A stretch of DNA of 64,000 bases from Methanobacteriota archaeon (lineage in GTDB: Archaea > Thermoplasmatota > Thermoplasmata > SG8-5 > JAGLSY01), in the NCBI GenBank assembly GCA_020697715.1, contig JAEHCO010000001.1:480001-544000 (forward strand), written 5' to 3'. Numbering within the stretch: the first letter of the stretch is position 1; the number at the start of each line of letters is the position of its first letter. Position numbers and translations under genes: made by a program. The notes beneath the pieces are model-generated. The model searched no databases. It was not told the DNA's origin and worked only from the letters and a program-made list of their open reading frames with translations. Positions 34,639-57,000 of this stretch are shown piece by piece.

Positions 34639-36840
34639 ATGGGACGTAAAGAAGATAACATAAAAAAAGCCCAGGCACTGATGACTCAACACGAGCAGAT
34701 CAGGAATATCGGAATAGCCGCTCACATAGACCACGGTAAAACCACATTGAGTGACAATCTCATCGCCGGGGCTGGCATGATGTCAGAAGAACTAGCTGGA
34801 AAACAGCTTTTACTGGACTTTGATGAGCAGGAGCAGGCAAGAGGAATCACTATCAATGCTGCCAATGCTTCCATGGTTCACGCATATGGTGACAAGGAGT
34901 TCCTTATCAACCTTATCGATACACCTGGCCACGTGGATTTCGGCGGGGACGTCACAAGGGCAATGAGGGCTGTTGACGGTTCCATCGTTGTGGTTTGCGC
35001 TGTTGAGGGTATCATGCCCCAAACAGAGACAGTTATCAGGCAGTCACTGAAAGAAAGGGTCAGGCCACTTCTTTTCATCAATAAGGTTGACAGGCTCATC
35101 AATGAGTTGGAGGTCACCCCAGAACAAATGCAGGAGCGTTTCATTAAGATCATCAAGAACGTTAATGACCTCATAATGAAGATGGTCCCTCCAGAGTTCA
35201 AGAAGGACTGGGGCCTCAAGGTGGATGATGGCAGTGTTGCCTTTGGTTCTGCTTATCATAACTGGGCGATATCCGTACCTTTCATGAAGTCATCTGGCAT
35301 CAGTTTCAAGGACATTTACGATTACTGTGCCAAGGACGAGCAGAGAGCGCTTTCAAAGAAGGCGCCCATACATCAGATCCTTCTGGATATGGTTATCGAG
35401 CATTGCCCAGACCCGATCGTTGCGCAGAATCGCAGGATACCAAATATCTGGCACGGAGACATAGAGTCCAAGGTAGGCCAGAGCATGATGAAATGTGACG
35501 GTAAAGGACCTGTCGCTCTCATGGTGACCAAGATAGTTATAGATCCCCACGCGGGAGAGATAGCCATTGGGAGAATGTACAGTGGAAGTATCAAGAGAGG
35601 ACAGACATTACATGTTCTCGGTATGCCAAATCCAAACAGAGTGCAGCAAGTATCACTCTGTGTAGGATCTGACAGGATAGCGGTCGATGGCATTGACGCA
35701 GGTAATATCGTCGCTGTCAACGGATTGAAGGATGCCATTGCTGGTTCAACAGTTTCGGACGATCCAGAAATGGATGCTTTCGAGAAGATCGTGCACTACT
35801 CAGAACCTGTGGTCACAGTCGCTATCGAGGCAAAGCATATGAGAGATCTTCCAAAACTGGTCGATGTGCTCAGATCCGTTGCAAAAGCAGATCCATCTAT
35901 TCAAGTTGAGATCAACCAAGAAACTGGAGAACACTTGATGTCCGGTATGGGAGAACTTCATCTTGAGATCACAGAATACAGGATAAAGAATGAATACGAT
36001 GTGGAGATCCAGTCTTCACCACCTATTGTTGTTTACAGAGAATGTATCGATAGAGAAGCAGGACCATTCGAAGGTAAATCACCGAACAAGCACAATAGGT
36101 TCTTCATGACAGTATCACCTCTCGAAGAAGAGGTCGTAAAGGCGATCCGAGAAGGTACCATACAGGTCGAAGGCAAGATCAAGGACAGTAAAGTATTGGG
36201 TGCTCAGCTCCAAGAAATGGGCATGACGAAGGAAGAGGCCAAAAAGCTCGTTGTCTTTGAAGGATCCAATGTACTGATAGATGGATCAAAGGGTGTTCAG
36301 TACCTCCACGAGACCATGGAATTGTGTAAAGAGGCCTTCAAAGAGGCCATGAACCGTGGCCCACTGGCCGAGGAAAAGGTCATGGGAGTGAAGGTCAAGC
36401 TTATGGATGCGAAACTTCACGAGGATACCATTCACAGAGGTCCGGCCCAGGTAATTCCAGCTGTAAGACAGGCGATCTATGGTGCAATGTGTGTTGCAGG
36501 TAGAACCCTTCAGGAACCAAAACAGATGGTATACGTGAGTGTACCACAGGATGTCATGGGAGGCGCAACCAGTGAGATGCAGCAAAGACGTGCAGTGATA
36601 GAGGACATGGAACAGGATGGAGATCTGACAGTGATCAAGTCCAAAGCTCCAGTCGCCGAGATGTTCGGCTTCTCCAATGATATGAGAAGTGTAACAGGTG
36701 GAAGAGCATCCTGGTCTACTGAGAACTGTGGGTTCGAAAGGATACCCAGAGAATTGCAGCAGGACGTTGTATCCAAGATAAGAACGCGAAAGGGGCTCAA
36801 ACCTGAGCCCTATGATGAGCACTACTATTCATCAGCATAA
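34639..36840 (+). CDS. fusA: Elongation factor EF-2
   Basis: [21 protein letters not shown], diphthamide loop [12 protein letters not shown]. Confidence 0.98.
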
Positions 36841-36902: not shown

Positions 36903-38174
36903 ATGGCAGAAAAACCGCATTTAAACATAGTCTTCATAGGACACGTGGACCACGGAAAGTCGACCCTTGTAGGTCGTATGCTCCTGGACACAGGTACTAT
37001 CGAGCAGCATATAATCGACAAATACAGAAAGGAAGCCGAAGAGAAAGGCAAGGCAAGTTTCGAATTTGCCTGGGTCATGGACGGCCTCAAGGAAGAAAGG
37101 GAAAGAGGTGTGACCATAGATGTGGCTCACAAGAAGTTCATGAGCGAAAAGTACTATTTCACAATCATTGACGCACCTGGTCACAGGGATTTCGTCAAGA
37201 ACATGATAACCGGTACCAGCCAGGCAGATGCCGCAGTGCTGGTCGTTGCCGGACCTGAAGGTGTCATGGCTCAGACAAAAGAGCACGTTTTCCTTGCAAG
37301 GACATTGGGTGTCGCACAGCTTATTGTCGCCATCAACAAGATGGACGCAATTGGCTATGATGAGGCCAAATACAAGGCGGTCGTTGAGGAAGTCACAAAG
37401 CTGGTCAAGTCAGTTGGTTACAAGGATGACCAGGTGAACTTTGTTCCAGTCAGTGCTATCAAGGGCGACAATGCAGCAAAGGATCCTGGCGAAATGGGCT
37501 GGTGGAAGGGCAACACTCTTCTGGGACAGCTCAATGATCTGAAAGAGCCACCAAAATCCACAAATCTCGCACTTAGGGTTCCAGTTCAAGATGTATATAC
37601 CATCACAGGTATCGGAACAGTTCCGGTCGGCAGGGTGGAGACAGGTACATTGAAGCCAGATATGAAGCTCGTCTTCATGCCATCTAATAAGGTCGGCGAA
37701 GTAAAGTCGATCGAGATGCACCACGAAATTTTGCCAAAGGCAGAACCAGGTGACAATGTTGGATTCAATGTTAGAGGAATAGGAAAGAACGATATCCGCA
37801 GAGGGGATGTCGCTGGACCAGTGGATAGCCCACCGTCTGTGGCAAAGACCTTCACTGCACAGATCATGGTTCTTAACCATCCGTCGGTTCTGACAGTCGG
37901 TTACACACCAGTGTTCCACTGCCACACAGCTCAGGTCGCATGTACCTTTATCGAACTTCAGAAGAAGCTCGATCCAAGAACTGGTGAAGTGAGCGAAGAG
38001 AACCCGCAGTTCCTCAAGACCGGAGATGCAGCAATAGTCAAGTTGCAGCCGTCAAGACCATTCGTCATTGAGAAGGCAAAGGAATTCCCACAGTTGGGAA
38101 GATTCGCCATCAGAGACATGGGTCAGACCGTTGCAGCTGGAATGTGCATAGATGTAGAAAAGAAGGAGATGTAG
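36903..38174 (+). CDS. tuf: Elongation factor EF-1 alpha
   Basis: [31 protein letters not shown]. Confidence 0.98.
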
Positions 38175-38216: not shown

Positions 38217-38534
38217 TTGTCTCAAAAAGCAAGGATCTCACTTAGTGGCACTGACCCTGAGAAGGTGGACAGTGTCTGTATCCAGATAAAAAACATATCT
38301 GAGAGAACAGGCGTTGCCATGAGTGGACCAATACCATTACCAACAAAACGCCTCATAGTTCCATGTAGGAAATCACCAGATGGTGAGGGTTCCGAAACAT
38401 GGGAACGCTGGGAAATGCGTGTGCACAAGCGCCTTATAGATTTGGATGCGGATGAGAGAGCTCTACGCGCTCTTATGAGGATCCAGGTGCCAGATGGCGT
38501 GAATATCGAAATAATACTTAGGACCAGAGACTAA
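38217..38534 (+). CDS. rpsJ: 30S ribosomal protein S10 (uS10)
   Basis: [35 protein letters not shown]. Confidence 0.97.
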
Positions 38535-38543
38535 GTACATTTG

Positions 38544-38576
38544 ATTTTAAGGGTTCGAATTTAGAACCCTTAAAAT
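38544..38576. terminator. 13-bp inverted repeat between convergent rps10 and TPR genes
   Basis: ATTTTAAGGGTTC-gaattta-GAACCCTTAAAAT. Confidence 0.55.
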
Positions 38577-40699
38577 TTCATTTTTAATTCATTAGCTTCA
38601 GCCATATTCGGATCCATTTCCAGAACTATATTGAGAAAGCTGATCGCTTTCTTCATCTTACCCATTTCGAAATACACTCTTGCTTTACCAAGCCAGCCCC
38701 AAATATAATCCTCATCTATGCCCAAGATATGATCATAGGTGTCCAATGCTTTCTTATGATCTCCATTCATGAGATCTATTTCAGCCATAAGCTTCCAGGC
38801 GGGTAGCCAATCACCTTCCCGCTCAAGTGCTTTTTCCAGAGATGCCAAGGCACCTGTATTGCTCCCCATTTTCATCTCCACCTCCGCCTTCGTTGTCAAG
38901 GCAGAGGGTCCGAGTCCTTTTCTGGCGAAGCACACCATGGCCTCCTCATATCTTCCCATATCTGCAAGAAGTCTGGCCTTCATTATGTGGACTTCCTCCA
39001 TTTCTTCGCCATCTTCACTTTTTTCGAGGCTATTGGTGAGTGAGATCAATGCCTTTTCATTTTCTCCAAGGCCATGAAGGGCTCTTGCCTTGAAGTACAA
39101 TATCTTACTGCCAATACCTTCACCTGGCATTTCATCGATCCATTCCAGTAATTCATCATATTCCTCGAAGGATATCAATAATTCCGCTTTCTTGATGATC
39201 AATTTCTTTTCATCATTGGCCGATAAGGCCTGGTCATAGCATATCATCGCCCTCTCGTATCTTTTGAGAGTGCTCAAGAGGCCTGCTTTATTCTCAAGAT
39301 TGGTGATATCCATATGATCGTACATCAGAAGATTGTCCACTATATTGAGAGCTTCTTTGAAACTTATCTCAGCCTCTTCATAATTTCCCATCTCCTTGAA
39401 TATCTTGCCTCTATCGACCCATGCCTCGATGAACATCGGATTGAGGATTATGGAATTGTTGATGGCATCAATGGCCTCCTCATTCTTCCCTATCCAGTGC
39501 ATGACCTCTCCTTTCGCATGCCATGAATGGTCATAATTGGGATTCAGCTCCAGGGATTGGTTCATAAGTTCCAATCCATAATCCATATCGCCCAATTTAG
39601 CAAGACCGAATCCTTTTGCGTAAAGAGCGTAATCAAAATCAGGCTTGAATTCCAGAGCCTTATCATGATATGGCTGAGCCTCTGCATATCTCGCCATTTT
39701 ATCCAATGCATTTCCAATATTGTTCCAAGCGATCTCATAGCCAGGCGATACTTCTATTCCTTTTTCAAAATAGGGGATAGATTCCTCCCATCTATCAAGG
39801 TTGTACAATGCATTTCCAATATTGTTCCAGAGGACCTCATCTCTCTGATCCATCTTCAGAGCCTCTTCATAACATTCGACAGCCTCTTCCAGCCTTCCAA
39901 TGCCATGATACGTGTACCCTTTATTGTACCAGGCCTGTTTGTATCGGGGATTAATGTCAATAGCCATATCATAGCTTTTCAATGCTTCATTATGAAGCCC
40001 CAGCATGAAAAATGTAAATCCTTTATTATTCCAAGCTTCCTCACTTTGAGGATTGATGTCAATGGCCTCATCATATGATTCAATGGCCTCCTCGAACCTT
40101 TCGAGATTGTAAAGGGTATTACCCCTACCATTCCACGCCTCTTCATTATCTGGATCCAGCTCCAAAGCCACATCATAATGCTCCAATGCGGCCTCAAAAT
40201 CCCTCTGCGCATCCAGTAATAGACCCTTTCTCATCCAGGGCCCGGGAATATCTGGATCTCGTTCTATTATCTCATCATAAAGCTCCAATGCCTCATCCAG
40301 TCTCCCAAGGGACGATAATGTCAATCCTTTATCATAATAAGCATGCATGTATTCGGGATCGATCAAAATGACCTGGTCATAGACTTCAAGTGCTTCATCC
40401 AGTTCTCCCAGATAGGTAAGGGAATTGGCCTTATTGTACATCGCGATGGAATATTCTGGTGTGATGGCCAGGGCATTGTCGTACATGTCTATGGCCTCTT
40501 CATGTCTCCCAAGGGCATCCAGTGCCACCCCGTAATTGTTGAAGAGCACATCATTATTTTTTAGTGTTTCCGAGGCCTTTTCGTAATATTCTATCGCCTT
40601 CTGGTAGTTTCCATATTCGGACAGAATATTCGCTCTTATGAAATTCTCATCCTTCTCTTCATCGTCTTGTTGGATGTGTCCTGCCGGAGGGTCTTCCAT
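38570..40699 (-). CDS. Tetratricopeptide repeat protein
   Basis: Many 34-aa repeats of the form AW(N/Y)NKG..L..LG..EEA...YD.A....P. Confidence 0.9.
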   Translation of the reverse strand: MEDPPAGHIQQDDEEKDENFIRANILSEYGNYQKAIEYYEKASETLKNNDVLFNNYGVALDALGRHEEAIDMYDNALAITPEYSIAMYNKANSLTYLGELDEALEVYDQVILIDPEYMHAYYDKGLTLSSLGRLDEALELYDEIIERDPDIPGPWMRKGLLLDAQRDFEAALEHYDVALELDPDNEEAWNGRGNTLYNLERFEEAIESYDEAIDINPQSEEAWNNKGFTFFMLGLHNEALKSYDMAIDINPRYKQAWYNKGYTYHGIGRLEEAVECYEEALKMDQRDEVLWNNIGNALYNLDRWEESIPYFEKGIEVSPGYEIAWNNIGNALDKMARYAEAQPYHDKALEFKPDFDYALYAKGFGLAKLGDMDYGLELMNQSLELNPNYDHSWHAKGEVMHWIGKNEEAIDAINNSIILNPMFIEAWVDRGKIFKEMGNYEEAEISFKEALNIVDNLLMYDHMDITNLENKAGLLSTLKRYERAMICYDQALSANDEKKLIIKKAELLISFEEYDELLEWIDEMPGEGIGSKILYFKARALHGLGENEKALISLTNSLEKSEDGEEMEEVHIMKARLLADMGRYEEAMVCFARKGLGPSALTTKAEVEMKMGSNTGALASLEKALEREGDWLPAWKLMAEIDLMNGDHKKALDTYDHILGIDEDYIWGWLGKARVYFEMGKMKKAISFLNIVLEMDPNMAEANELKMKF

Positions 40700-40875
40700 G
40701 GATGGTGATATGTATGTTTGGATATAAAATAATTTGATGAATTATCAATAGATCGAGAATTCTTGATTCTTTCCATTTAGAGTTAAAATTCGATCGGAAC
40801 CAGTACTAAATAATATGTCATTTTTTAAATTCACAGCAATCATACTTAAATATAGATATACAGTAATGGGGGTTG

Positions 40876-41751
40876 ATGAGAAAAACAAGAACCGACAAGT
40901 TAGGAAACATATATGAAACTCCTAAAGGTATCTTGGTCGCAGTGGGGGGAAACGAGGATAAGGAAAACGATTTAGATGTTCTTAGAAAAATAACCAAACT
41001 TACAACTAAAAAAGATCCAATTATTGAGATAATCACCACAGCCACAAGCACACCGAATAAAACTGGAGACGCGTACCTCAATGCTTTTAAGAAGATAGGC
41101 ATAACCAATACCAACCTTCTTCATATTAGGGTGAGAGACCAAGCAAATAGCATTGAATATCTTGAGAGGATCCAGAAGGCCGACATAATATTTTTTACAG
41201 GCGGCGACCAGCTCAAGATCACCAGCATACTTGGAGGCTCTCCTATTCTTGAAGAGATCAAAAGAAAATACTTCAATGAAAAATGTGTGATCGCCGGAAC
41301 AAGCGCAGGGGCGTCCGCAATGTCGGATACCATGATATATGGCGGTGAGAGCCATGAAGCCCTATGCAAGGGTGTGGTCCAGATGACTGGTGGTGTGGGC
41401 CTGATAAAACATATGATAATTGATAGTCATTTCATAAAAAGAGGCAGGTTCAGCAGGTTGATGGAGATAGTCTCTTCAAACCCAGGGTATATCGGCCTGG
41501 GCCTGGGGGAAGATACAGGAGTTATAATTCGGGATGGACACATATTGGAAGCTATCGGCACCGGTTTAGTAGTGATATTTGATGGCTATGGAATAAAATA
41601 TACAAATATCTCTTCTTTAAAAGATGGGGAAGCAATTGCGGTTGAGGGTGTTCTTGTCCACACACTTGGAAAGGGCCATGGATTCGATACCTTGACAAGA
41701 GAATATCTGAAACCATCTGGACTTAAAAAGTCCCTGAGGTCAAATGCATGA
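40876..41751 (+). CDS. cphB: Cyanophycinase (peptidase S51)
   Basis: VAVGGNEDK, FFTGGDQL, nucleophile GTSAGAS, IDSHF..RGRFSRL, GLGEDT. ATGA overlap with cphA. Confidence 0.92.
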   Translation: MRKTRTDKLGNIYETPKGILVAVGGNEDKENDLDVLRKITKLTTKKDPIIEIITTATSTPNKTGDAYLNAFKKIGITNTNLLHIRVRDQANSIEYLERIQKADIIFFTGGDQLKITSILGGSPILEEIKRKYFNEKCVIAGTSAGASAMSDTMIYGGESHEALCKGVVQMTGGVGLIKHMIIDSHFIKRGRFSRLMEIVSSNPGYIGLGLGEDTGVIIRDGHILEAIGTGLVVIFDGYGIKYTNISSLKDGEAIAVEGVLVHTLGKGHGFDTLTREYLKPSGLKKSLRSNA

Positions 41752-44372
41752 AAATTGAGGAAATAAGAGCTCTTTGGGGTCCGAACTATTACAGTCGTTA
41801 TCCAGTTATTTACATGCTTTTGGATATAGGGAAATTAGAGGAGAAACCCTCTGATATGGTCCCAGACATGAAAGACAGATTGCTCAAATTGATGCCGAGT
41901 ATAATGGAACATAGATGCTCCCCAGGTCATATAGGTGGCTTTTTAGAAAGGATTGAAAGAGGGACATGGGCCGGTCATATTGTAGAGCATGTGGCAATAG
42001 AGCTTCAATGTCTCGCAAACATGGAAGTTGGATTCGGTAAGACAATAGGAACAGATGCTAAGGGAGTTTACAAGGTTGTATTCAGATACAGGGATCAAGA
42101 GGTTGGTGTTGAAGCCGGGAAAGCAGCGGTAAAGATAGTGGATGCATTGTTCAAGAACAAGCCCATCAAGATCGAACCGATCATCGCTCGCTTGAAGGTA
42201 ATTCGGGAAGAGAACATATTTGGACCTTCAACTTATTCAATAATCAAAGAAGCGGAGAGTCGTGGGATACCACATATTCGTCTCAATAAACAAAGTTATG
42301 TTCAGTTGGGACATGGTATAAATCAACGCAGAATTCAGGCCACCATGGTGGACAATACCTCTGCCATTGGTGTGGAGATAGCAGATGATAAAGAACAAAC
42401 CAAGGAGATCCTGGATGAGGCTGGAATTCCAGTTCCTATGGGAAGATCCGTAGATAGTCTAGAAGGGGCTTTCCTGGTCGCCAAAGATATAAATTATCCA
42501 GTCACCGTGAAACCTTTGGTGGGGCATCATGGTAAGGGCATCACGGCCAATGTGAAAAATGATGGGGAACTTAAAATAGCCTTCAACAGTGCGAAAAAAT
42601 TCCATGAACTTATTGTTGTGGAAAAGCATTTGGAAGGTTTCGATCATAGATTGTTGGTGATCAATGGAGAACTTGTTGCAGCTGCTAGAAGAGAGACTGC
42701 CAGTGTTGAGGGCGATGGAAGATCAACGATCCGTGAACTCATCGATGTGGTCAATGAAGATCCAAGACGGGGCATCGGGCATGAGAAGGTTCTCACGGAG
42801 ATAAAAATAGATTATATGACAAAGAGGCTGCTCAAACACCAGAACTTGAAACTTACGGACATACTTCCAGATGGAAGTATGCTCTATCTCAAATCCACTG
42901 CCAACCTCAGCACTGGTGGTTGTTCGATAGACGTGACTGATGAAGTGCATCCTCATATCAAAAGGATGGCAGAGCGGATATCCGAGATAATCAATATCAA
43001 TGTGATGGGAATAGATGTGGTAGCTCCACATCTTCGAAGACCCTTGAAAGAAACTGGAGGGGGAATAATTGAGGTGAACGCAGCTCCAGGATTCAGGATG
43101 CATTTAGAGCCATATTCAGGTGCTAGGAGGAATGTGGCTAAACCTCTGGTCGATATGTTGTTTCCTCCAGAGGCAAAGAGCACGATCCCCATCATTGCAG
43201 TAACTGGCACGAATGGGAAAACAACCACGGTCCGCCTCATAGCACACATCCTCAAATATGCTGGAAAAAGCGTGGGAATGTGTTGCACAGACGGTATCGA
43301 GATCGGAAACCAGGTGGTTTTGGAGGGAGACTACAGTGGACCTTCGGGAGCCAGGCATATTTTGACAGAACCATTGGTTGACCATGCTGTTTTAGAGGTT
43401 GCCCGTGGTGGCATCCTGAGGAGAGGACTTGGATATGATGAAAGCGATATCGGGGTCTTTCTAAACATCTCCGCCGACCATCTTGGCTTGGATGGACTAA
43501 ATACCCTGGAGGATCTGGCTGACCTGAAAAGTGTGGTCGTGGACAATATTAAACCCAAAGGGTTCGCAGTCCTTAATGCCGATGACGAATTGGTCATGAA
43601 ATCAATAGACAAGATCAAGGCGAATATCATATTATTCTCTCTCGATAACACCAATCCAGTCCTTTTAACCCACATCTCAAATGATGGAATTGCTGTTACA
43701 GTTAAAGATGGGAATATCATCTTAAGAAAGGGTGCTATTGATATGAAAATAGCAAGGATCAGTAATGTCCCGATCACTTTCGGCGGAAAAGCATTGTTCA
43801 ATATAGCCAATACCCTGGCAGCTGTTGGAGCGACATATGCGGTTGGCATAGATATTAAGACCATACAAACCAGCCTAGTTACATTCAACTCGTCCACAGG
43901 GCAATTGCCAGGCAGGGCGAATCTAATAGATGTCGGCTCATTCAAGGTCTTGATAGATTACGGGCACAATCCCTCTGCAATTGAATCACTTGCAGGTCTG
44001 ATACCTCATCTTACCAATGGAAGAAAGATCAATGTTGGAAGCGGTACAGGGAATCGAAGAGATGAGGACATACTGAATTTTGGTAGGAACATGGGAAAAA
44101 TGTATGATGAAATAATCCTATGCGATTCAGATCCCAGAGATCGGAAACCTGGTGAAACTGCTGAGTTGGCACGTGAAGGTGTGCTATCATCAGATTTTCC
44201 TAAAAAGAATATTCAGATCGTCCTGGATGAGGGTGAGGCCATACAAACTGCTCTTGAAATGGCTAATGAGGGCGATCTCGTGGTCATTCAGGCCAATTAC
44301 ATCAAAGAAGCGATCCATATTGTATTGGAATACAAAGAGAAGCTATTGGCAAAAAGCAAGAAGCGAACCTGA
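41748..44372 (+). CDS. cphA: Cyanophycin synthetase CphA1
   Basis: N domain GPNYYS and C-x19-HIVEH. ATP-grasp G domain GPSTYSI, VQLGHG..QRRIQAT, VKP..GHHGKGIT, TANLSTGG, EVNAAPGFRMH. Mur-like M domain AVTGTNGKTT, EVARGGILRRGL, PGRAN, DYGHNP. Confidence 0.95.
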   Translation: MKIEEIRALWGPNYYSRYPVIYMLLDIGKLEEKPSDMVPDMKDRLLKLMPSIMEHRCSPGHIGGFLERIERGTWAGHIVEHVAIELQCLANMEVGFGKTIGTDAKGVYKVVFRYRDQEVGVEAGKAAVKIVDALFKNKPIKIEPIIARLKVIREENIFGPSTYSIIKEAESRGIPHIRLNKQSYVQLGHGINQRRIQATMVDNTSAIGVEIADDKEQTKEILDEAGIPVPMGRSVDSLEGAFLVAKDINYPVTVKPLVGHHGKGITANVKNDGELKIAFNSAKKFHELIVVEKHLEGFDHRLLVINGELVAAARRETASVEGDGRSTIRELIDVVNEDPRRGIGHEKVLTEIKIDYMTKRLLKHQNLKLTDILPDGSMLYLKSTANLSTGGCSIDVTDEVHPHIKRMAERISEIININVMGIDVVAPHLRRPLKETGGGIIEVNAAPGFRMHLEPYSGARRNVAKPLVDMLFPPEAKSTIPIIAVTGTNGKTTTVRLIAHILKYAGKSVGMCCTDGIEIGNQVVLEGDYSGPSGARHILTEPLVDHAVLEVARGGILRRGLGYDESDIGVFLNISADHLGLDGLNTLEDLADLKSVVVDNIKPKGFAVLNADDELVMKSIDKIKANIILFSLDNTNPVLLTHISNDGIAVTVKDGNIILRKGAIDMKIARISNVPITFGGKALFNIANTLAAVGATYAVGIDIKTIQTSLVTFNSSTGQLPGRANLIDVGSFKVLIDYGHNPSAIESLAGLIPHLTNGRKINVGSGTGNRRDEDILNFGRNMGKMYDEIILCDSDPRDRKPGETAELAREGVLSSDFPKKNIQIVLDEGEAIQTALEMANEGDLVVIQANYIKEAIHIVLEYKEKLLAKSKKRT

Positions 44373-44459
44373 ACAGATCTTGAAATTTGATTACTTAAAA
44401 CTTGCCTATCTTCCACGCCTGGAATGAGAACATTCAGATTCTTTAGAGTCTGAATGTTC

Positions 44460-46136
44460 TCAGAATACCGCAGGTTCCTCATATTCACCAAATATGTCCC
44501 TGAGGGCGCTACAGGTCTCTCCCAAGGTCGCCTGCTTCTTGACAGCATCCAGTATGTAGGGCATCAGGTTCTCATCTCCTTCCGCGGCTTTTCTCAAAGC
44601 CTCCAATGCGGCATCGGTCTTTACCTGATCTCTGTTAGATCTTATCTTTCTAAGTCTATCAAATTGGATCTTCTCGCCTTCTGGATCTATCTTCAGTATC
44701 GGAATATCTATGTTCTCGTTCTCATCCACATATTCATTGACACCGACAATGGTCCTTTCTCCACTATCGATATCCTTCTGATACTGGAAAGCGGCATTGG
44801 CTATCTCCTGCTGGAAGAATCCTTTATCAATGGCTTTGAGGACTCCACCCAAAGCCTCGATCTTGTCAAAATATTTGTAAGTCCCTTCTTCCATCCAGTC
44901 GGTCATATATTCAACATAATAGGAGCCTGCCAGAGGATCTATGGTATTGACCACCCCGCTCTCCTCGGCTATTATCTGTTGGGTTCTGAGAGCGATCTTC
45001 ACAGCCTTCTCGCTGGGTAGTGCCAGAGCTTCGTCCATCGAGTTCGTGTGGAGTGATTGTGTACCACCAAGTACAGAAGCTAATCCTTGGATCGTGGTCC
45101 TAACGATATTATTTTCTGGTTGTTGTGCAGTTAGCGAACAACCAGCAGTCTGGGTATGGAACCTCAGCCACATGGTCCTGTCCTTCTTGGCTCCTCGTTT
45201 TTTCATCTCATTTGCCCAAATGCGCCTCGCGGCCCTGTATTTACCTATTTCTTCGAATAGGTCATTATGTGCATTGAAGAAAAATGATAATCTTGGAGCG
45301 AACTGGTCCAGGTCCAAACCACGCTCCATAGCGGCATCGACATATGCTAATCCATCTGCCAATGTGAAGGCCAGTTCTTGAAGCGCGGTGGATCCAGCTT
45401 CCCTGATATGGTATCCACTTATGCTTATCGTGTTCCATCTTGGAACTTCCTTGGTTCCAAATTCAAAAGTATCGACAATGAGCCTCATCGATGGTTCTGG
45501 AGGGAATATCCATGATTTCTGCGCGATGTATTCTTTCAAAATGTCATTTTGAATGGTTCCAGTGATCTGTCCTCTGGAAGCTCCCTGATTCTCGGCAGCC
45601 GCGATATAGAAGGCCCAGACAACTGGTGCTGGCCCATTGATGGTCATCGAGGTACTGACGTCCTTCATCGGTATACCGTCGAAGAGAGTTTCCATGTCTT
45701 TCAATGAGGATATGCCAACACCACACTTGCCAAATTCTCCCTCGGCAAGTGGGTCGTCACTGTCCCTACCGTAAAGGGTAGGGAAATCAAATGCCACGCT
45801 GAGGCCAGTCTCTCCGTGAGCCAGGAGATACTTGTACCTTTGATTTGTTTCTTCCGCTGTCCCGAATCCCGCAAACTGGCGCATGGTCCAAAGCCGGCCA
45901 CGGTGCATGGTCGGCTGAACACCTCTTGTGAAAGGGAATTGACCAGGAAAGTTCAATTTCTCCATGTAATCTGAATCATTGATGTCATCCGGTGTGTGTA
46001 ATGGTCTTACCGGTACACTGGATGTTGTGACGAAGTCATCCCTGCGCTCACCGTGTTTGCTGACCGCATTGGCATATGTGACCTTCTCCCATTCCTTCTT
46101 CGCTTTCTTGATCTCCTCAATTTTTGGATCCGACAT
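44460..46136 (-). CDS. B12-dependent acyl-CoA mutase large subunit, isobutyryl-CoA mutase-like
   Basis: PGQFPFTRG, WTMRQFAGFG, QNDILKEYIAQK, ISGYHIREAG, QSLHTN. No C-terminal B12-binding domain (split type). Confidence 0.9.
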   Translation of the reverse strand: MSDPKIEEIKKAKKEWEKVTYANAVSKHGERRDDFVTTSSVPVRPLHTPDDINDSDYMEKLNFPGQFPFTRGVQPTMHRGRLWTMRQFAGFGTAEETNQRYKYLLAHGETGLSVAFDFPTLYGRDSDDPLAEGEFGKCGVGISSLKDMETLFDGIPMKDVSTSMTINGPAPVVWAFYIAAAENQGASRGQITGTIQNDILKEYIAQKSWIFPPEPSMRLIVDTFEFGTKEVPRWNTISISGYHIREAGSTALQELAFTLADGLAYVDAAMERGLDLDQFAPRLSFFFNAHNDLFEEIGKYRAARRIWANEMKKRGAKKDRTMWLRFHTQTAGCSLTAQQPENNIVRTTIQGLASVLGGTQSLHTNSMDEALALPSEKAVKIALRTQQIIAEESGVVNTIDPLAGSYYVEYMTDWMEEGTYKYFDKIEALGGVLKAIDKGFFQQEIANAAFQYQKDIDSGERTIVGVNEYVDENENIDIPILKIDPEGEKIQFDRLRKIRSNRDQVKTDAALEALRKAAEGDENLMPYILDAVKKQATLGETCSALRDIFGEYEEPAVF

Positions 46137-46431
46137 CTGGGTGCCTCCATTGACGTAATATATGGGAGAAATCATGGTTCATGACCCTCTCATCAATGCA
46201 TCCGACATAAATTTCGGGTTAAATAGTGTTTTGTTCTGCCAAAACAGTGCTTGTTCATAGATTTCAAGCACTGGCTATACAAAATCACAATAATTTAAAA
46301 ATCAACAAATATGATCAGCCAGCTCTTCGAATATTTGGATGATTTTCAAAATAGTTATATATATAAAACATTTTTATACTATTATATCTATTTACCACTT
46401 GGAATTTAAATCATGCGTGGGATGTGAAGCA

Positions 46432-47145
46432 ATGTCGGAAGAAATCAATGTACTAGATAGAAGATATCTAGCTGAGCTTTTGGGAACCATGATCCTTGTA
46501 TTCATAGGATGTGGAAGTGCAGTGATCGCAGGTGGATATGTAGGATTCTTAGGGATCTCGTTCGCCTTTGGATTGACAGTCCTGGCCTTGGTATATGCCA
46601 TCGGGCCAATATCTGGATGTCATATCAATCCAGCCATAACAATCGCTATGCTGGTGTCTAAAAAGATAAAGAAAAATGATGCCATCATGTACATAATCTA
46701 TCAGAGCGTGGGAGCGATAATAGGTGCTCTTATACTATTCTCCATAATGAATGGTCATGTGGATTATGACCTGGCAACCAATGGATTGGGCCAGAATGGA
46801 TATGACACAGCATCTCCAGCGGACTTCCCATTGATGTCCGCATTCATTGCCGAGGTCGTCCTTACTTTCATCTTCCTGCTTGTCGTGCTGGGTGCAACAA
46901 GCAAGAAAGCGGAGAACTCCTTCGCAGGAGTGGCCATTGGTCTTACTTTGACCTTCGTGCACATTGTTGGAATTCCAATAACTGGAACATCCGTCAACCC
47001 TGCAAGAAGTCTTGGACCTGCATTGGTCATGGCGATGGAGAACACACTGGCTCTGGAACAACTTTGGATGTTCTGGCTGGCTCCGATAATAGGTGCGGTC
47101 ATAGCAGCTGTAGTGTGGAAATACGTTCTGGAACCCAGAAGGTAA
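46432..47145 (+). CDS. Aquaporin (MIP family, AqpZ-like)
   Basis: AELLGT, ISGCHINPA, GTSVNPARS, WLAPIIGA. Confidence 0.93.
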   Translation: MSEEINVLDRRYLAELLGTMILVFIGCGSAVIAGGYVGFLGISFAFGLTVLALVYAIGPISGCHINPAITIAMLVSKKIKKNDAIMYIIYQSVGAIIGALILFSIMNGHVDYDLATNGLGQNGYDTASPADFPLMSAFIAEVVLTFIFLLVVLGATSKKAENSFAGVAIGLTLTFVHIVGIPITGTSVNPARSLGPALVMAMENTLALEQLWMFWLAPIIGAVIAAVVWKYVLEPRR

Positions 47146-47213: not shown

Positions 47214-49445
47214 TTAACATTTTGAGAAGCCACAGTTCTGGCAGATCAAGCAACCCTCGATGAATGCGATAGGCCCACCGCATTCAGGGCATTCGGGTCT
47301 CACACCACTATCCAGCTTCGTCATTTCCTGAATGATCTGCCCTTTGTTCTTGAGATGCCCTTCAATGGCCTTTCCGATAGCATCAGGGCACGAATATATC
47401 TTATCCTTACCCAGTGCCCGCTCTGGACATCTGATACCCTTCAATTGCTCTATGATATTGCTAGAATCAATGCCCGCCCTCAGTGCCAGGGATATCAATC
47501 TACCAATGGCCTCGGTCTGGCTAGCGGCACATCCGCCTGTCTTTCCCATTCTGGCAAAGAGCTCGAATAACTTATTATTGTCCTCATTCACCGTGACATA
47601 AAGATAACCACACCCGGTCTTCATCCTGTGTGTGGCTCCGTGTATCATAAGCGGCCTCGGCCTCGGCCTCAGCTTGCCATTACTATCAATACCGATATCA
47701 GCCAATGTCGTCTGGTGGATCGCTGTATCTGTCTTGCTCTTACTGGCACTACTACCGGATTCAAGGACCTGTGTCCCCCTGCAACCATCCCTATAAACTG
47801 TAATGCCCTTACAACCTGTTTCGAAAGCCAGGTTGTAAACATTGGCGATATCATCCTTAGTAGCACTGGTATTAAGATTAACTGTCTTGGAAACAGCATT
47901 ATCCGTGTGTTTCTGGAAGGCCGCCTGCATCTGCACATGCCCTTCTGCAGATATCTCATGAGCGGTCTTGAAAAGCGATTTTAGATCACTCGGGAATCCA
48001 GGTAAACTGGCGGTAGTTCCCAACTTGACAATGGCCTCTTCCAACTCATCCGTGTATATGCCACGTTCCTCACATTTCTGCTTGAAGAAAGGATGCACAT
48101 AGTGAAGTGCATCGTCGTCCATCACAGTTTTCACATACGCGATGGAATAAATGGGCTCTATCCCACTGGAACAATCTGCGATCATGGATATGGTGCCAGT
48201 AGGAGCGATCGTCGTGATAGTGGCATTCCTCACCTTCCTATCATTTTCAAATATACTGCCTTTGAAACTGGGGAATGTTCCTCTTTCTTCGGCCAGTTTT
48301 TCAGAGGCTGACCATCCCTCATCCTGCACGAATTTCATCAATTTCTTTGCGAATTTATATGCCTGGGTGGATTCATATGGAATATCCATCTGGATAAGCA
48401 TATCGGCCCAACCCATTATCCCCAATCCGATCTTCCTATTGTTCTTGGTCATTTCGTCTATTTCTGGTAAAGGATATTTGTTCATGTCTATGACATCATC
48501 AAGGAATCTGACCGAGGTGTGTATCACTTTTCTGAGCTTGTCCCAGTCCACTTCATCATCCTTGATCATGTGGCTGAGATTGATGGAACCTAAATTACAT
48601 GATTCGTATGGAAGAAGAGGTTGTTCACCACATGGATTGGTGCTTTCCACCTCTCCAACATGCGGTGTGGGGTTGAACTTGTTAATGCGGTCTATGAAGA
48701 CCATGCCAGGGTCACCTGTTTTCCAGGCCATGCTGGATATGTCATCATAAATCTCTTTGGCACTGGCCTTGCCACATTTCTTACCATCTTTGGGATTGAT
48801 AAGATCATATTCCTCACCCTTTTTCAGGGCTTTCATGAACTTGTCCGTTATGGCCACGGAGATATTGAAATTCGTGAGAACACTCAGATCCTCCTTGCAT
48901 TTTATAAACTCTTGAATATCGGGGTGATCGACGCGCAAAATTCCCATATTCGCGCCTCTGCGAGTACCACCTTGCTTGATGGCCTCAGTGGCCGCATTGA
49001 AGACCTTCATGAAGGAGATAGGTCCACTGCTAACGCCACTGGTGGACATGACAGGGTCATTCTTCGGCCTCAATCGAGTGAATGAAAAACCAGTTCCCCC
49101 TCCACTTTTGTGGATAAGGGCTGCGTTCTTGAGCGCATCGAATATGCTCTCCATGGAATCGCCCACTGGAAGAACAAAACATGCGGATAATTGCTGAATA
49201 TCTCTGCCAGCATTCATCAGGGTTGGTGAGTTTGGCAGAAAATCTAGATCTGCCATCAAATTGTAGAATTCGTTTTCTATCTTTTTGATATCTTTTTTGC
49301 TTTTTCCATAACTCGCTTCTGCCGAGGCAATGTTCTTGGCAACTCTCCTGAACATATCCTCTGGTCCTTCGATCAATTTCCCATTATCGTCCTTTGCCAG
49401 ATAACGGCGCTCCAGTACTGTTAATGCGTTCTTGCTGATACTCAC
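47214..49445 (-). CDS. nrdJ: Adenosylcobalamin-dependent (class II) ribonucleotide reductase with TSCPD domain
   Basis: FLPNSPTLMNAG, LSACFV, GGTRRGANM, TNPCGEQ, CNLGSINL, TIAPTGTIS, KGITVYRDG, YSCPDA, C-terminal CPEC...CQNCGFSKC. Confidence 0.96.
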   Translation of the reverse strand: MSISKNALTVLERRYLAKDDNGKLIEGPEDMFRRVAKNIASAEASYGKSKKDIKKIENEFYNLMADLDFLPNSPTLMNAGRDIQQLSACFVLPVGDSMESIFDALKNAALIHKSGGGTGFSFTRLRPKNDPVMSTSGVSSGPISFMKVFNAATEAIKQGGTRRGANMGILRVDHPDIQEFIKCKEDLSVLTNFNISVAITDKFMKALKKGEEYDLINPKDGKKCGKASAKEIYDDISSMAWKTGDPGMVFIDRINKFNPTPHVGEVESTNPCGEQPLLPYESCNLGSINLSHMIKDDEVDWDKLRKVIHTSVRFLDDVIDMNKYPLPEIDEMTKNNRKIGLGIMGWADMLIQMDIPYESTQAYKFAKKLMKFVQDEGWSASEKLAEERGTFPSFKGSIFENDRKVRNATITTIAPTGTISMIADCSSGIEPIYSIAYVKTVMDDDALHYVHPFFKQKCEERGIYTDELEEAIVKLGTTASLPGFPSDLKSLFKTAHEISAEGHVQMQAAFQKHTDNAVSKTVNLNTSATKDDIANVYNLAFETGCKGITVYRDGCRGTQVLESGSSASKSKTDTAIHQTTLADIGIDSNGKLRPRPRPLMIHGATHRMKTGCGYLYVTVNEDNNKLFELFARMGKTGGCAASQTEAIGRLISLALRAGIDSSNIIEQLKGIRCPERALGKDKIYSCPDAIGKAIEGHLKNKGQIIQEMTKLDSGVRPECPECGGPIAFIEGCLICQNCGFSKC

Positions 49446-54000: not shown

Positions 54001-57000
54001 GTGCCAGTTATTGCTATAGATGTTACAATCCGAGATATCAACATCCCCGTCCATCACAGCCTCGATATAAATTCCGGCTCCGCGGTTGTCATAGACATCG
54101 ACACCCGAGATGTCAATATCCATGGTATTGGCCAGAAGAGTGATCCCGTTTCCGTTCATCTCATCCCCGCCACCGCACCAGTTACCGTATAGGGCTCCTG
54201 CCACTGTGCCGCCGGTCATATCAAGTTCAAGAATGTTCTGGGCATTGATCTTCAAGGCACTCGCCTTTCCACCAGGTCCAAAGACATTATCATTCATGGT
54301 CGCGAATACATTCTGGGTCAGGGAGGCACCACTGCACCATTCCCCGATCCTGACACCGAAATCGTATATCTCATCTTCATCGTAAATCTCATCCCATATT
54401 CCCTGGACGATATTGTTGTTCATCTCAAGAGTTATATTATTCTGAGATGCTATCTTGATACCGCCTCCAGCATCTGCATCTTTCTGGAAATCCGCGATTA
54501 TTGTATTATCTGATATCCTGGCAAATATGTTATCAGCATAAGCAGACCCACCAGAAGCACCGATGGTGATGGCTCCTTCAAGCGATGCATCATTTGAGAA
54601 GATGGCAATGTGATTGTATCTTATGTCATTGCCAATGATATCAGTATATATGTCACCATTTCCAATTATGCTGATGATGCCGCCACCAGTTGGCCCGCCT
54701 CCGCCCAGGATATTGATCAATATTGTATTGTCCAGAAGGTCAGCACTGACATTTCCTGGCGTGCCCCAATCATTACCAATGGATATCAAGGTTCCAGTAT
54801 CAATGTCCAAAGATGCTACCATCTCCGTGTACTCGAAATAATTGTTGGATATTGTGGTATTGAGGAAATCATAGATATCCAGGTTCACAAAGGAGCACCC
54901 GTCCTCATCCATTATATTTTCCACAATGAACTCATTGTCTGTTACAATAACATCTCCAGTATCGGCATTGACACCAAGTAATCCCTCTGAGCCGATCCGT
55001 CCATTTCCATAATACTTGTTCATTGAGAAGAACACATCGGCATTGTCATTACTTTCAAGAATAAATACAGAATATAATTCTGGGAAGTCGGTACCCAGAG
55101 ATACAATCTCAATATCATTCCCAGTTATGATCGCGGTAAGGTCACCATTATCTGCATCTACATCAAACACTTCTCTGAGCTCGTTCACTTTTGATAGAAT
55201 GTGATTATCCATGATCGTGATATTTATGTCTATACTCGCATCAATATTGAATATACGGTCAATACAGTAACCGACCCCGTATGTTATGATATTGTTTCCA
55301 GAGAGATCTAAGGTCATGTTACCAGCATCTGCATCAAATTCTATGAAATCATTTTTATTTTCGTACATGTACGTGGTGGTCACAGTATCTGTCATCACTA
55401 TTGTGTTTTGACTAAAGGATGCGGCCATATTGTTATCGGCATAGAATTCAAATCCATCGAACATATACCTTTGGATATTGATATCATTGTTCTCAAATGC
55501 CAAGGTCATATTATCAGATTCCACATCGAACAAATGCGCTCCGTGTAAGGCAATGTCAACATCATTGTCTATGAAGGTGAAATCCATATCTCCGTTATCG
55601 GCATAGATCTCGAAGACGGGTTTCCAATCCTGTGTATAATCATCCACATGATAATCATCTATCAGATCTCCATTGATGTAGATATCATTCCCCTCAAATC
55701 CAAGGTCCATGTTCTGATCGAATGACTCAATGTAGAATAATGAAGTATATACCCAGGCATCGGTGATCGTGATATTATTATTGATCAGATCCAAGGTAAT
55801 ATTCTCATTGGCCGTTACATAGAACACCCACCTGTCATTATCCCTACAATAATCGTCACTTCCGATGATTATGTCATTGTTCTCTATAGTGGCGGTGATA
55901 TTTCCATCAGAGTATAACTCAAATGTTCTCCTGTGGTATTCGTCTACAATTATCGGTAGATAATTGTTTTTAATAATGGCATTAAGATTGTTGGAGCATT
56001 CGAAGTTGAAAGCAGATCCCTCATATGAGTATGGGAATGAACCTACATCGAACTCGATATAATTGTCCATGATGATCACATTGATATCCTCACAATTCCT
56101 GATACAGAATGAATCCCACATATCGGGATCGTTTGTAAATGATATGGCATTCCTTATGAAGTTGGCATTGATGGTGTCTGCATCTTCAAAGAAGAAAGCC
56201 TCTTTAAGATGATCGCTGTATATGTAGATGAAGCAATCAGCTATAGTGACATCCAAGACATCATTCGCAGTTATATACAATCCCTCATGAACTTCGTTGC
56301 AATAAACGTCCACCATGGTATTCTCAAAGGTTATGCTTGCATTTTCATTCCCACTGAACCAGAATATATGATATAATGAATCAAATTCCCCACCAATTGT
56401 ACAATCAATGAACAATGCATTCATGTCTCCACCAGCACTACCAAGAACTATTGCGTCCATATAGCTACCATCGATATCACAGTATATCTCATTCTCCTGG
56501 AAATTGAGGTTAACATCAGCATTATCAGACTCAAATGAGAATATTCCATCATTGTTGCCGGAAGTATCTGACTCGTCATTAACAATGTTGTTTAAGAAGT
56601 CAAAGTTCAATGTTTCTCCAGCTTCTATTTCGAAGACCGAACCAGAGGATATTTCCTCATGATTTATATCAAAGGAGTTATCGGTCATGGTCACATTCAT
56701 AAAATCATCTGCATACATGTAAATGAGATACCATAGGACCATCCAGCTTTTATCCCCATTGCAATCCATGACATTATCAACAAAATTCAATTCAATATTG
56801 CCATTGGAACGCATATACAGGTTCTCGGCCCAGCCAAAGCCATCTGAACCACTGAAATAATTGCCCGTCATATCGATGTCCAATAGGTTCCGGGCTCCGA
56901 AATTCTCGATCATCGTTCCAGTAGATTTATCTCCATTCCCGATAATGACATTGTCAGTGAAGGTCAGTGTGGTGTTGGCTGAGGTTGGTGAATCCCACGG

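Follow-up and report, generated by a model that had tools for sequence, protein, structure and literature searches.

Does an archaeon of the phylum Thermoplasmatota carry a working system for making and using cyanophycin, and how did it come by the genes? The question is raised by a 64-kb stretch of an archaeal contig (the whole 64,000 nucleotides analyzed are called the window here) in which a cyanophycinase gene, cphB, runs directly into a gene for cyanophycin synthetase 1, cphA1. Cyanophycin is a polymer that stores nitrogen, and work on its biology and enzymology, like the large surveys of its genes, has so far centered on bacteria. We found that both genes are full length and free of stops, that each catalytic residue checked is kept, and that the pair is absent from the syntenic site in four of four same-family genomes. 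We consider it likely that the pair is a functional cyanophycin operon that was gained as a two-gene cassette after the split from the sequenced congeners, with an archaeon of the same order as the likeliest donor. This agrees with the preliminary description of this DNA, which had called the pair intact, horizontally acquired, and probably functional.

The two genes and their immediate flanks are as follows.

40876-41751, + strand: cphB, 291 amino acids from its ATG; an alternative TTG lies at 40873 (open reading frame [ORF] 40873-41751).

41748-44372, + strand: cphA1, 874 amino acids, three domains.

40821-40875, + strand: upstream region homologous among cassettes, with a TATA-like TTAAATATA at ~40846-40854 and a G-run just 5' of the start codon.

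44428-44459, no strand assigned: perfect inverted repeat with 11-bp arms and a 10-nucleotide loop, between the convergent stops of cphA1 and a mutase gene.

We found that the synthetase scores over the curated equivalog cut-offs of both TIGR02068 (1151.5 bits against 850) and NF010623 (1122 bits against 877). Its Pfam layout begins with the N domain (PF18921, residues 23 to 135), continues with a RimK/ATP-grasp match (PF08443, 212 to 328), and ends with a Mur-ligase-like M domain made up of Mur_ligase_M (PF08245, 485 to 695) and Mur_ligase_C (PF02875, 722 to 848). The complete N, G, and M set, with both Mur-ligase parts, separates CphA1 from the shorter CphA2. Residues 1 to 859 align to the solved CphA1 7lg5 (806.9 bits; E value, 2.5e-241). 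Together with the Pfam domains, this bears out the full three-domain, 874-residue CphA1 that the preliminary description had reported.

The exact Cx19HxxEH motif that had been read in the N domain is also there. It is formed by C57-x19-H77-x-x-E80-H81 and aligns to C59/H79/E82/H83 of the Synechocystis enzyme, the metal site of the primer-generating N domain (PMC9262961). The same source finds the full motif in 83% of nr70 CphA1 (PMC9262961). The supporting N-domain residues H55, F65, R68, and E85 align to the solved CphA1 as well. The G domain keeps H261, and the M domain keeps D577/H578 and a P-loop, TGTNGKTT, at residues 486 to 493. In the Synechocystis enzyme, E82Q, H267A, and D585A/H586A inactivate the N, G, and M sites, respectively (PMC9262961); the corresponding residues here are E80, H261, and D577/H578. 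We took the structures 7lg5, 7lgj, 7lgq, and 7txu to be the Synechocystis sp. UTEX2470 enzyme SuCphA1 of that study because 7txv differs by a Q for E at the motif position. The archaeal protein shares with these bacterial structures the three-domain build, the Cx19HxxEH site, the G-domain His, the M-domain Asp-His, and the P-loop. It differs from them in its archaeal host, in belonging to a Thermoplasmatota-only clade, and in having a function that is predicted from sequence.

CphB is likewise over its curated equivalog cut-off (TIGR02069, 235.3 bits against 126.6) and matches the Pfam family Peptidase_S51 (PF03575, 74.8 bits). The motifs GTSAG, DSHF, and GED, already noted in the preliminary description, stand at residues 141, 183, and 211, numbered from the ATG. 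They hold what we take to be the Ser-His-Glu catalytic triad of cyanophycinases, presumably Ser132/His174/Glu201 in the Synechocystis enzyme. The residues in question here are S143, H185, and E212, which align to the same motifs of the solved cyanophycinases 7uqv and 3en0; both alignments run end to end (E values, 3.8e-62 and 3.1e-41, respectively). CphB thus belongs to the same S51 family as the solved cyanophycinases 7uqv, 7uqw, and 3en0, with the Ser, His, and Glu motif residues aligned, and differs from them in its archaeal host and in an activity that is predicted. Read by eye, its N terminus, MRKTRTDKLGNIYETPKG, has no hydrophobic stretch. It does not look like a signal peptide, which would fit the intracellular CphB type, unlike the secreted CphE type.

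The cphB stop and the cphA1 start overlap in ATGA (41748-41751, + strand), and a GAGGT lies 9 to 13 nucleotides upstream of the cphA1 ATG. We infer from this that the two genes are translationally coupled. The homologous upstream region, with its TATA-like element, may act as the promoter, and the inverted repeat between the convergent stops could possibly serve as a bidirectional terminator. With both reading frames open and the checked catalytic residues in place, the operon is probably functional.

By analogy with the bacterial enzymes, CphA1 would use ATP to join Asp and Arg into multi-L-arginyl-poly-L-aspartate, with the ATP-grasp G domain lengthening the chain of Asp residues and the Mur-ligase-like M domain attaching Arg. 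The intact Cx19HxxEH site of the N domain would cut the polymer into primers and so permit primer-independent synthesis. When the reserve is used, a cytoplasmic CphB, encoded upstream and translationally coupled to the synthetase, would free beta-Asp-Arg dipeptides. The cassette, consisting of the genes and ~50 bp upstream, would have been gained in this lineage after its divergence from the sequenced congeners, most likely from a same-order archaeon, and an older interdomain transfer would tie the archaeal clade to bacterial CphA1.

The evidence for a gain comes from the insertion site. We compared 22 kb of the window by blastn with the matching regions of three genomes of the same genus (G003, G001, and G002) and one of the same family (G004). 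The features that matter for this comparison are given below.

38570-40699, - strand: tetratricopeptide repeat (TPR) protein gene (Pfam TPR families), bordering the insert on the left and divergent from cphB.

40740-44459, no strand assigned: 3.72-kb stretch comprising cphB-cphA1 and short flanks; ~90 to 160 bp stand in its place in the four same-family genomes.

44460-46175, - strand: methylmalonyl-CoA mutase large-subunit gene (PF01642, 735 bits), bordering the insert on the right and convergent with cphA1.

We found that the TPR and mutase genes are directly adjacent in all four genomes. The closest, G003, is 87 to 89% identical to the window at the nucleotide level, and its mutase protein is 97% identical, against 81 to 87% for the other three. 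The collinear alignment ends at ~40739, just past the TPR gene start, and restarts at 44460, which is the mutase gene stop. The 3.7-kb stretch is thus a clean two-gene insertion or deletion. It is most simply explained by one gain in this lineage; on the loss reading, this one site would have been emptied cleanly at least three times.

The extent of the insert fits a cassette. Nucleotide homology to the nearest copies elsewhere is confined to 40821-44425, the two genes plus ~50 bp on either side, and begins at 40821 in locus L038, at 40833 in L017, and at 40859 in L015. Cassette identity is 85.5% for L015, 83.7% for L016, and 81.2% for L038, and the gene neighborhood is different at every other cassette locus examined.

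We found 413 CphA relatives. Among the best 80 of these, the closest are from other Thermoplasmatota, at 73 to 86% protein identity. We built a tree of 82 CphA rows, comprising the window, the best 80 loci, and one divergent same-class outgroup, with five duplicates dropped. It was a quick IQ-TREE tree under LG+C20 with posterior mean site frequencies (PMSF), and support was from the Shimodaira-Hasegawa-like approximate likelihood ratio test (SH-aLRT) only. Because the rows were chosen for their similarity to the query, the tree gives neither donor nor root. The window's CphA groups exclusively with archaeal rows, in a clade of 11 (SH-aLRT, 88) and, nested within it, one of 8 (98). The 11-row clade is sister (99) to four bacterial or unlabeled rows, one each from Aminicenantes, Halanaerobiaceae, Fusibacter, and a metagenome chromosome. 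Two further archaeal CphA groups lie elsewhere in the tree, one of them sister to Halomonadaceae (93), and a same-class archaeal CphA is just 38 to 39% identical to that of the window.

Constraining the 16 archaeal rows together made the tree 51.6 log-likelihood units worse, with a P value of 0.018 in the approximately unbiased (AU) test (42-row subset, LG+G4); the tested group was chosen after inspection of the tree, and LG+G4 rejects some true clades. This hints at more than one interdomain transfer of CphA. CphA1 is present in 6% of complete bacterial RefSeq genomes (PMC9974463). As CphA1 is widespread in bacteria, we infer that the old direction was more likely from bacteria to archaea.

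For the immediate donor, we compared CphA with the highly conserved EF-2. CphA is 83 to 86% identical to that of genomes of one family of the order (f4) and 73 to 75% identical to that of another (f2); for EF-2, the values for the same genomes are 77 to 78% and 71%. CphA identities above those of EF-2 are as expected from transfer within the order. We think it more likely that the immediate donor was another archaeon of the same order than that it was a bacterium. CphB similarity ranks the relatives in the same order as CphA does. The identities also suggest that CphA is under purifying conservation.

Base composition does not add to this case. The preliminary description had judged the locus more AT-rich than its neighbors. 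The difference is real (GC of 0.429 for the insert at 40740-44459 and 0.456 for the remaining window), but it is small and is shared by the relatives' copies, which lie 2 to 4 GC points below their own flanks in five of the six loci examined. Across a range of 46% to 59%, cassette GC tracks host GC. The genes themselves are thus slightly AT-rich, and this does not mark them as recent arrivals. Among 936 long ORFs of the genome, GC content at third codon positions (GC3) is 0.421 for cphB (8th percentile) and 0.432 for cphA1 (10.5th percentile), and the codon fit of the two genes falls at the 15th to 34th percentile. These values are low in GC3 and are not foreign. A horizontally acquired cassette is the best reading of the locus, and it would rest on the synteny gap rather than on AT-richness.

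Several observations count against a functional cassette gained by transfer. At the borders of the insert, we saw no integrase, no repeat, and no target duplication. Composition gives no foreign mark for the cassette. CphA identities follow the same family order as those of EF-2, with f4 closer than f2, and so vertical descent with losses stays a rival. The junctions are those given by the assembly, and the product and the activities are predicted from the genes. The last enzyme of degradation is also missing. The preliminary description had suggested a search for an isoaspartyl dipeptidase elsewhere, and we found none of the three known beta-Asp-Arg dipeptidase types: in this 93.8%-complete genome, there was no match to IaaA (PF01112), the best match to IadA (TIGR01975) reached 20 bits against a cut-off of 331, and there was no match to the AstE/AspA-type domain PF04952, which is one small domain of the CphZ type. 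PF01112 was absent from all 22 genomes of the order.

The alternative that survives best is that the operon is old in the order, was inherited vertically, and was lost from the congeners by repeated clean deletions. It would account for the shared family order of CphA and EF-2, and it agrees with the presence of cphA in three of the four families of the order, with the tracking of host GC by each copy, and with the unremarkable codon usage. However, it requires at least three separate losses at exactly one site (in G003, on the G001/G002 branch, and in G004), each leaving ~90 to 160 bp. The differing neighborhoods of the other loci do not fit it, and between families CphA is more similar than EF-2. 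We regard this alternative as unlikely and a single gain of the cassette as the better explanation.

A second alternative accepts that the genes are intact but denies them a full storage cycle. The pair would be a recent neutral passenger heading for decay, or it would serve some other end by making or using a similar polymer or dipeptide, with the last degradative enzyme missing. The lack of an IaaA, IadA, or CphZ-type gene in the genome and of IaaA throughout the order points this way, as do the failure to find an arginine deiminase gene and the absence of the pair from all close congeners. Against decay, both genes are full length and stop free with every checked catalytic residue kept, and protein identity to the copies in other families is high. 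A gap at the dipeptidase step is also no rarity: 27% of bacterial genomes with a cyanophycin synthetase lack both iaaA and iadA (PMC9974463), and therefore the gap is not disqualifying. A carbamate kinase gene and an arginase-family gene are present in this genome. We consider this second alternative improbable and a functional operon the better account of the same genes.

That bacterial DNA was fused to an archaeal contig by misassembly or misbinning is very hard to credit, even for a metagenome-like genome of 34 contigs. The insert lies midway in a 956-kb contig, between archaeal syntenic genes that are collinear with four related genomes, and a chimera would demand a pair of exact false joins separated by 3.7 kb. 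For both genes, the nearest homologues occur at 14 other named archaeal loci that were assembled independently; the nearest bacterial CphA among the best 80 of the 413 relatives is just 57 to 58% identical. Across the phylum, the pair turns up again in ~40 of 401 genomes. Four public DNA runs, each sharing 0.06 of the sampled words, gave short contigs of ~120 to 540 bases that were mostly 85 to 95% alike. Placed at 40300-44900, these derive from the cphB and cphA genes of relatives; none spans 40740 or 44459, and they have no bearing on the junctions or on expression.

If the operon is functional, what would finish the degradation of the dipeptides? Elsewhere in Thermoplasmatota, IaaA-type isoaspartyl peptidase genes stand beside the cph genes at two loci.

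L024:4170-5120, no strand assigned: iaaA, PF01112.

L090:8020-8988, no strand assigned: iaaA, PF01112.

The two matches score 183 to 204 bits, and at L090 the cluster is complete, comprising cphA1 and a second cphA-like gene as well as iaaA and cphB. Both loci lie on archaeal contigs and have the same cphA1 and cphB families as the window. They differ in carrying iaaA, and L090 also in its tandem cphA-like gene, whereas the window's order is without PF01112; their CphA proteins sit on other branches of the tree.

We also considered arginine use. An energy store drawn on through the arginine deiminase pathway is unsupported for this genome, in which we found no arginine deiminase. The missing dipeptidase qualifies the nitrogen and energy store that the preliminary description had proposed. 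We put forward, as a tentative proposal that has more against it than for it, that cyanophycin is an overlooked nitrogen and carbon reserve of benthic Thermoplasmatota, in about a tenth of species, that the two-gene cassette has been exchanged among archaea and bacteria, and that in this order degradation would be finished by a beta-Asp-Arg dipeptidase of a new family.

One neighboring gene was considered as a partner. Upstream of cphB at three loci whose CphA belongs to the window's clade, there is a gene resembling class-II glutamine amidotransferases (PF13230, Ntn-hydrolase type).

L038:3945-4742, divergent from cphB: PF13230 gene.

L016:60-857, divergent from cphB: PF13230 gene.

L017:4222-5370, divergent from cphB: PF13230 gene.

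We did not find such a gene in the window's genome with that query. As a linked partner, we rejected it: it occurs in 4 of the 7 cphA-bearing genomes of the order and in 2 of the 15 others, and it is adjacent in 2. As a dipeptide-processing partner, it is a weak lead.

A further observation concerns the synthetase. In two Thermoplasmatota loci, a second cphA-like gene lies directly downstream of cphA1 (L050:8625-10949 and L090:5810-8050). Compared with the window's CphA, these genes are 28 to 31% identical over the first third and 47 to 49% identical over the Mur-ligase part. The L050 gene has ATP-grasp and Mur-ligase matches and none to the CphA N-domain family. The second gene may be a partner or a paralogue of CphA1.

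How widespread is the pair? Of the 22 genomes of the order, 7 carry cphA, full length in 6 and truncated by a contig end in the seventh; the 4 other members of the window's family lack it. We surveyed Thermoplasmatota with an even sample of 401 genomes, counting CphA matches at an E value of ≤1e-100. We found cphA in 42 of them, 36 being over the curated cut-off, and in one family it occurs in 17 of 24. A cyanophycinase over the cut-off is also present in 42. Both genes are found together in 40 genomes, cphA only in 2 (both partial matches), and cphB only in 2. Four archaeal control genomes gave no CphA match over the cut-off. We concluded that the cyanophycin pair is patchy yet well established in Thermoplasmatota, at ~10% of sampled genomes.

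The pairing itself is consistent. A CphB-like match lies in the flanks of 81 of 86 cphA loci, and most bacterial loci examined also place cphA directly downstream of cphB. By tblastn, cphB is present in 14 of the 15 named archaeal loci, the exception being a 2.6-kb contig. When ORFs were clustered across 14 archaeal loci and the window, a procedure that missed some cphB genes, the only widely shared genes were cphB and cphA.

The enzymes are well characterized in bacteria (PMC9262961 and PMC9974463), and two gene surveys drew on bacteria with complete RefSeq genomes (PMC9974463). Work on Mur-type ligases from 2025 found CphA to be bacteria specific in a sample of 755 organisms (PMC11915815). 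Archaeal genes have nonetheless been mentioned in print. A 2018 preprint states that the Heimdallarchaeia metagenome-assembled genomes (MAGs) LC_2 and LC_3 encode cyanophycin synthesis and degradation (10.1101/385732), a cyanophycinase was reported in Culexarchaeia in 2022 (PMC9723716), and a figure legend in a 2020 MAG study carries the entry "cph cyanophycin" (PMC7495880). The preliminary description knew of no demonstration in archaea. No experiment was found by us either, but in the light of these mentions, and of the pair's presence in ~10% of sampled Thermoplasmatota genomes, it had overrated the novelty. Our literature search, which lay outside subscription journals, found no mention of cyanophycin for Thermoplasmatota and no archaeal experiment; archaeal cph genes, perhaps some from Thermoplasmatota, may be listed in the supplements of four papers (10.1101/385732, PMC9723716, PMC7495880, and PMC10206079).

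As the published descriptions have it, the Heimdallarchaeia and Culexarchaeia reports are likewise genome-based predictions in uncultured archaea. Compared with them by description only, the present case concerns another phylum and adds catalytic residues, a defined insertion site, and a phylum-wide count. The enzymes are orthodox, their archaeal occurrence is known in other phyla, and the pair is fairly common in Thermoplasmatota. The current view of the enzyme mechanism is left unchanged. The value of the locus lies in a clean, testable archaeal example, in the count across the phylum, and in the question of the missing dipeptidase. The defined gene pair could be expressed for a first biochemical proof of an archaeal cyanophycin synthetase, and abundant sediment archaea likely store fixed nitrogen as cyanophycin.

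The host contig is 956,489 bp long, in a genome of 2.12 Mb that is 0.56% contaminated. Upstream of the insert, the window carries three archaeal marker genes.

34639-36840, + strand: aEF-2 gene (NCBIfam equivalog TIGR00490, 1134 bits; Pfam).

36903-38174, + strand: EF-1alpha gene (TIGR00483, 717 bits; Pfam).

38217-38534, + strand: uS10 ribosomal protein gene, uS10_euk_arch (TIGR01046, 157.8 bits; Pfam).

All three are archaeal equivalogs and serve as host markers. The block ends 2.34 kb upstream of cphB, which matches the ~2.3 kb to an archaeal ribosomal operon given in the preliminary description. That operon consists of protein genes only; we found no rRNA or tRNA genes in the window with Rfam and ARAGORN.

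On the other side of the insert, an aquaporin Z gene (46339-47145) adjoins the mutase gene. It aligns in G003 and G002 and is skipped in G001 and G004, and its GC3 is low (0.439, 12th percentile). The region around the insert seems prone to small gene gains and losses. A B12-dependent ribonucleotide reductase gene follows (47214-49445, 743 amino acids). Its product matches one 1,126-residue frame on G010:C33 in two pieces (residues 1 to 272 and 269 to 743) and lies within a 1,016-residue frame on G008:C42. It looks as though the relatives' reductase carries an intein-sized insertion that is absent from the window's copy. The GC minimum of the window is at 55001-57000, where two 1-kb bins have values of 0.371 and 0.395, compared with ~0.45 overall. 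Finally, ~9 kb past the end of the window, a 681-residue frame weakly matches the Mur-ligase portion of the CphA model (46.6 bits; G000:C11:553234-554070). G003, G004, G021, and G010 have comparable frames of ~650 to 690 residues, and the frame is predicted to encode another Mur-ligase-family protein of this order.

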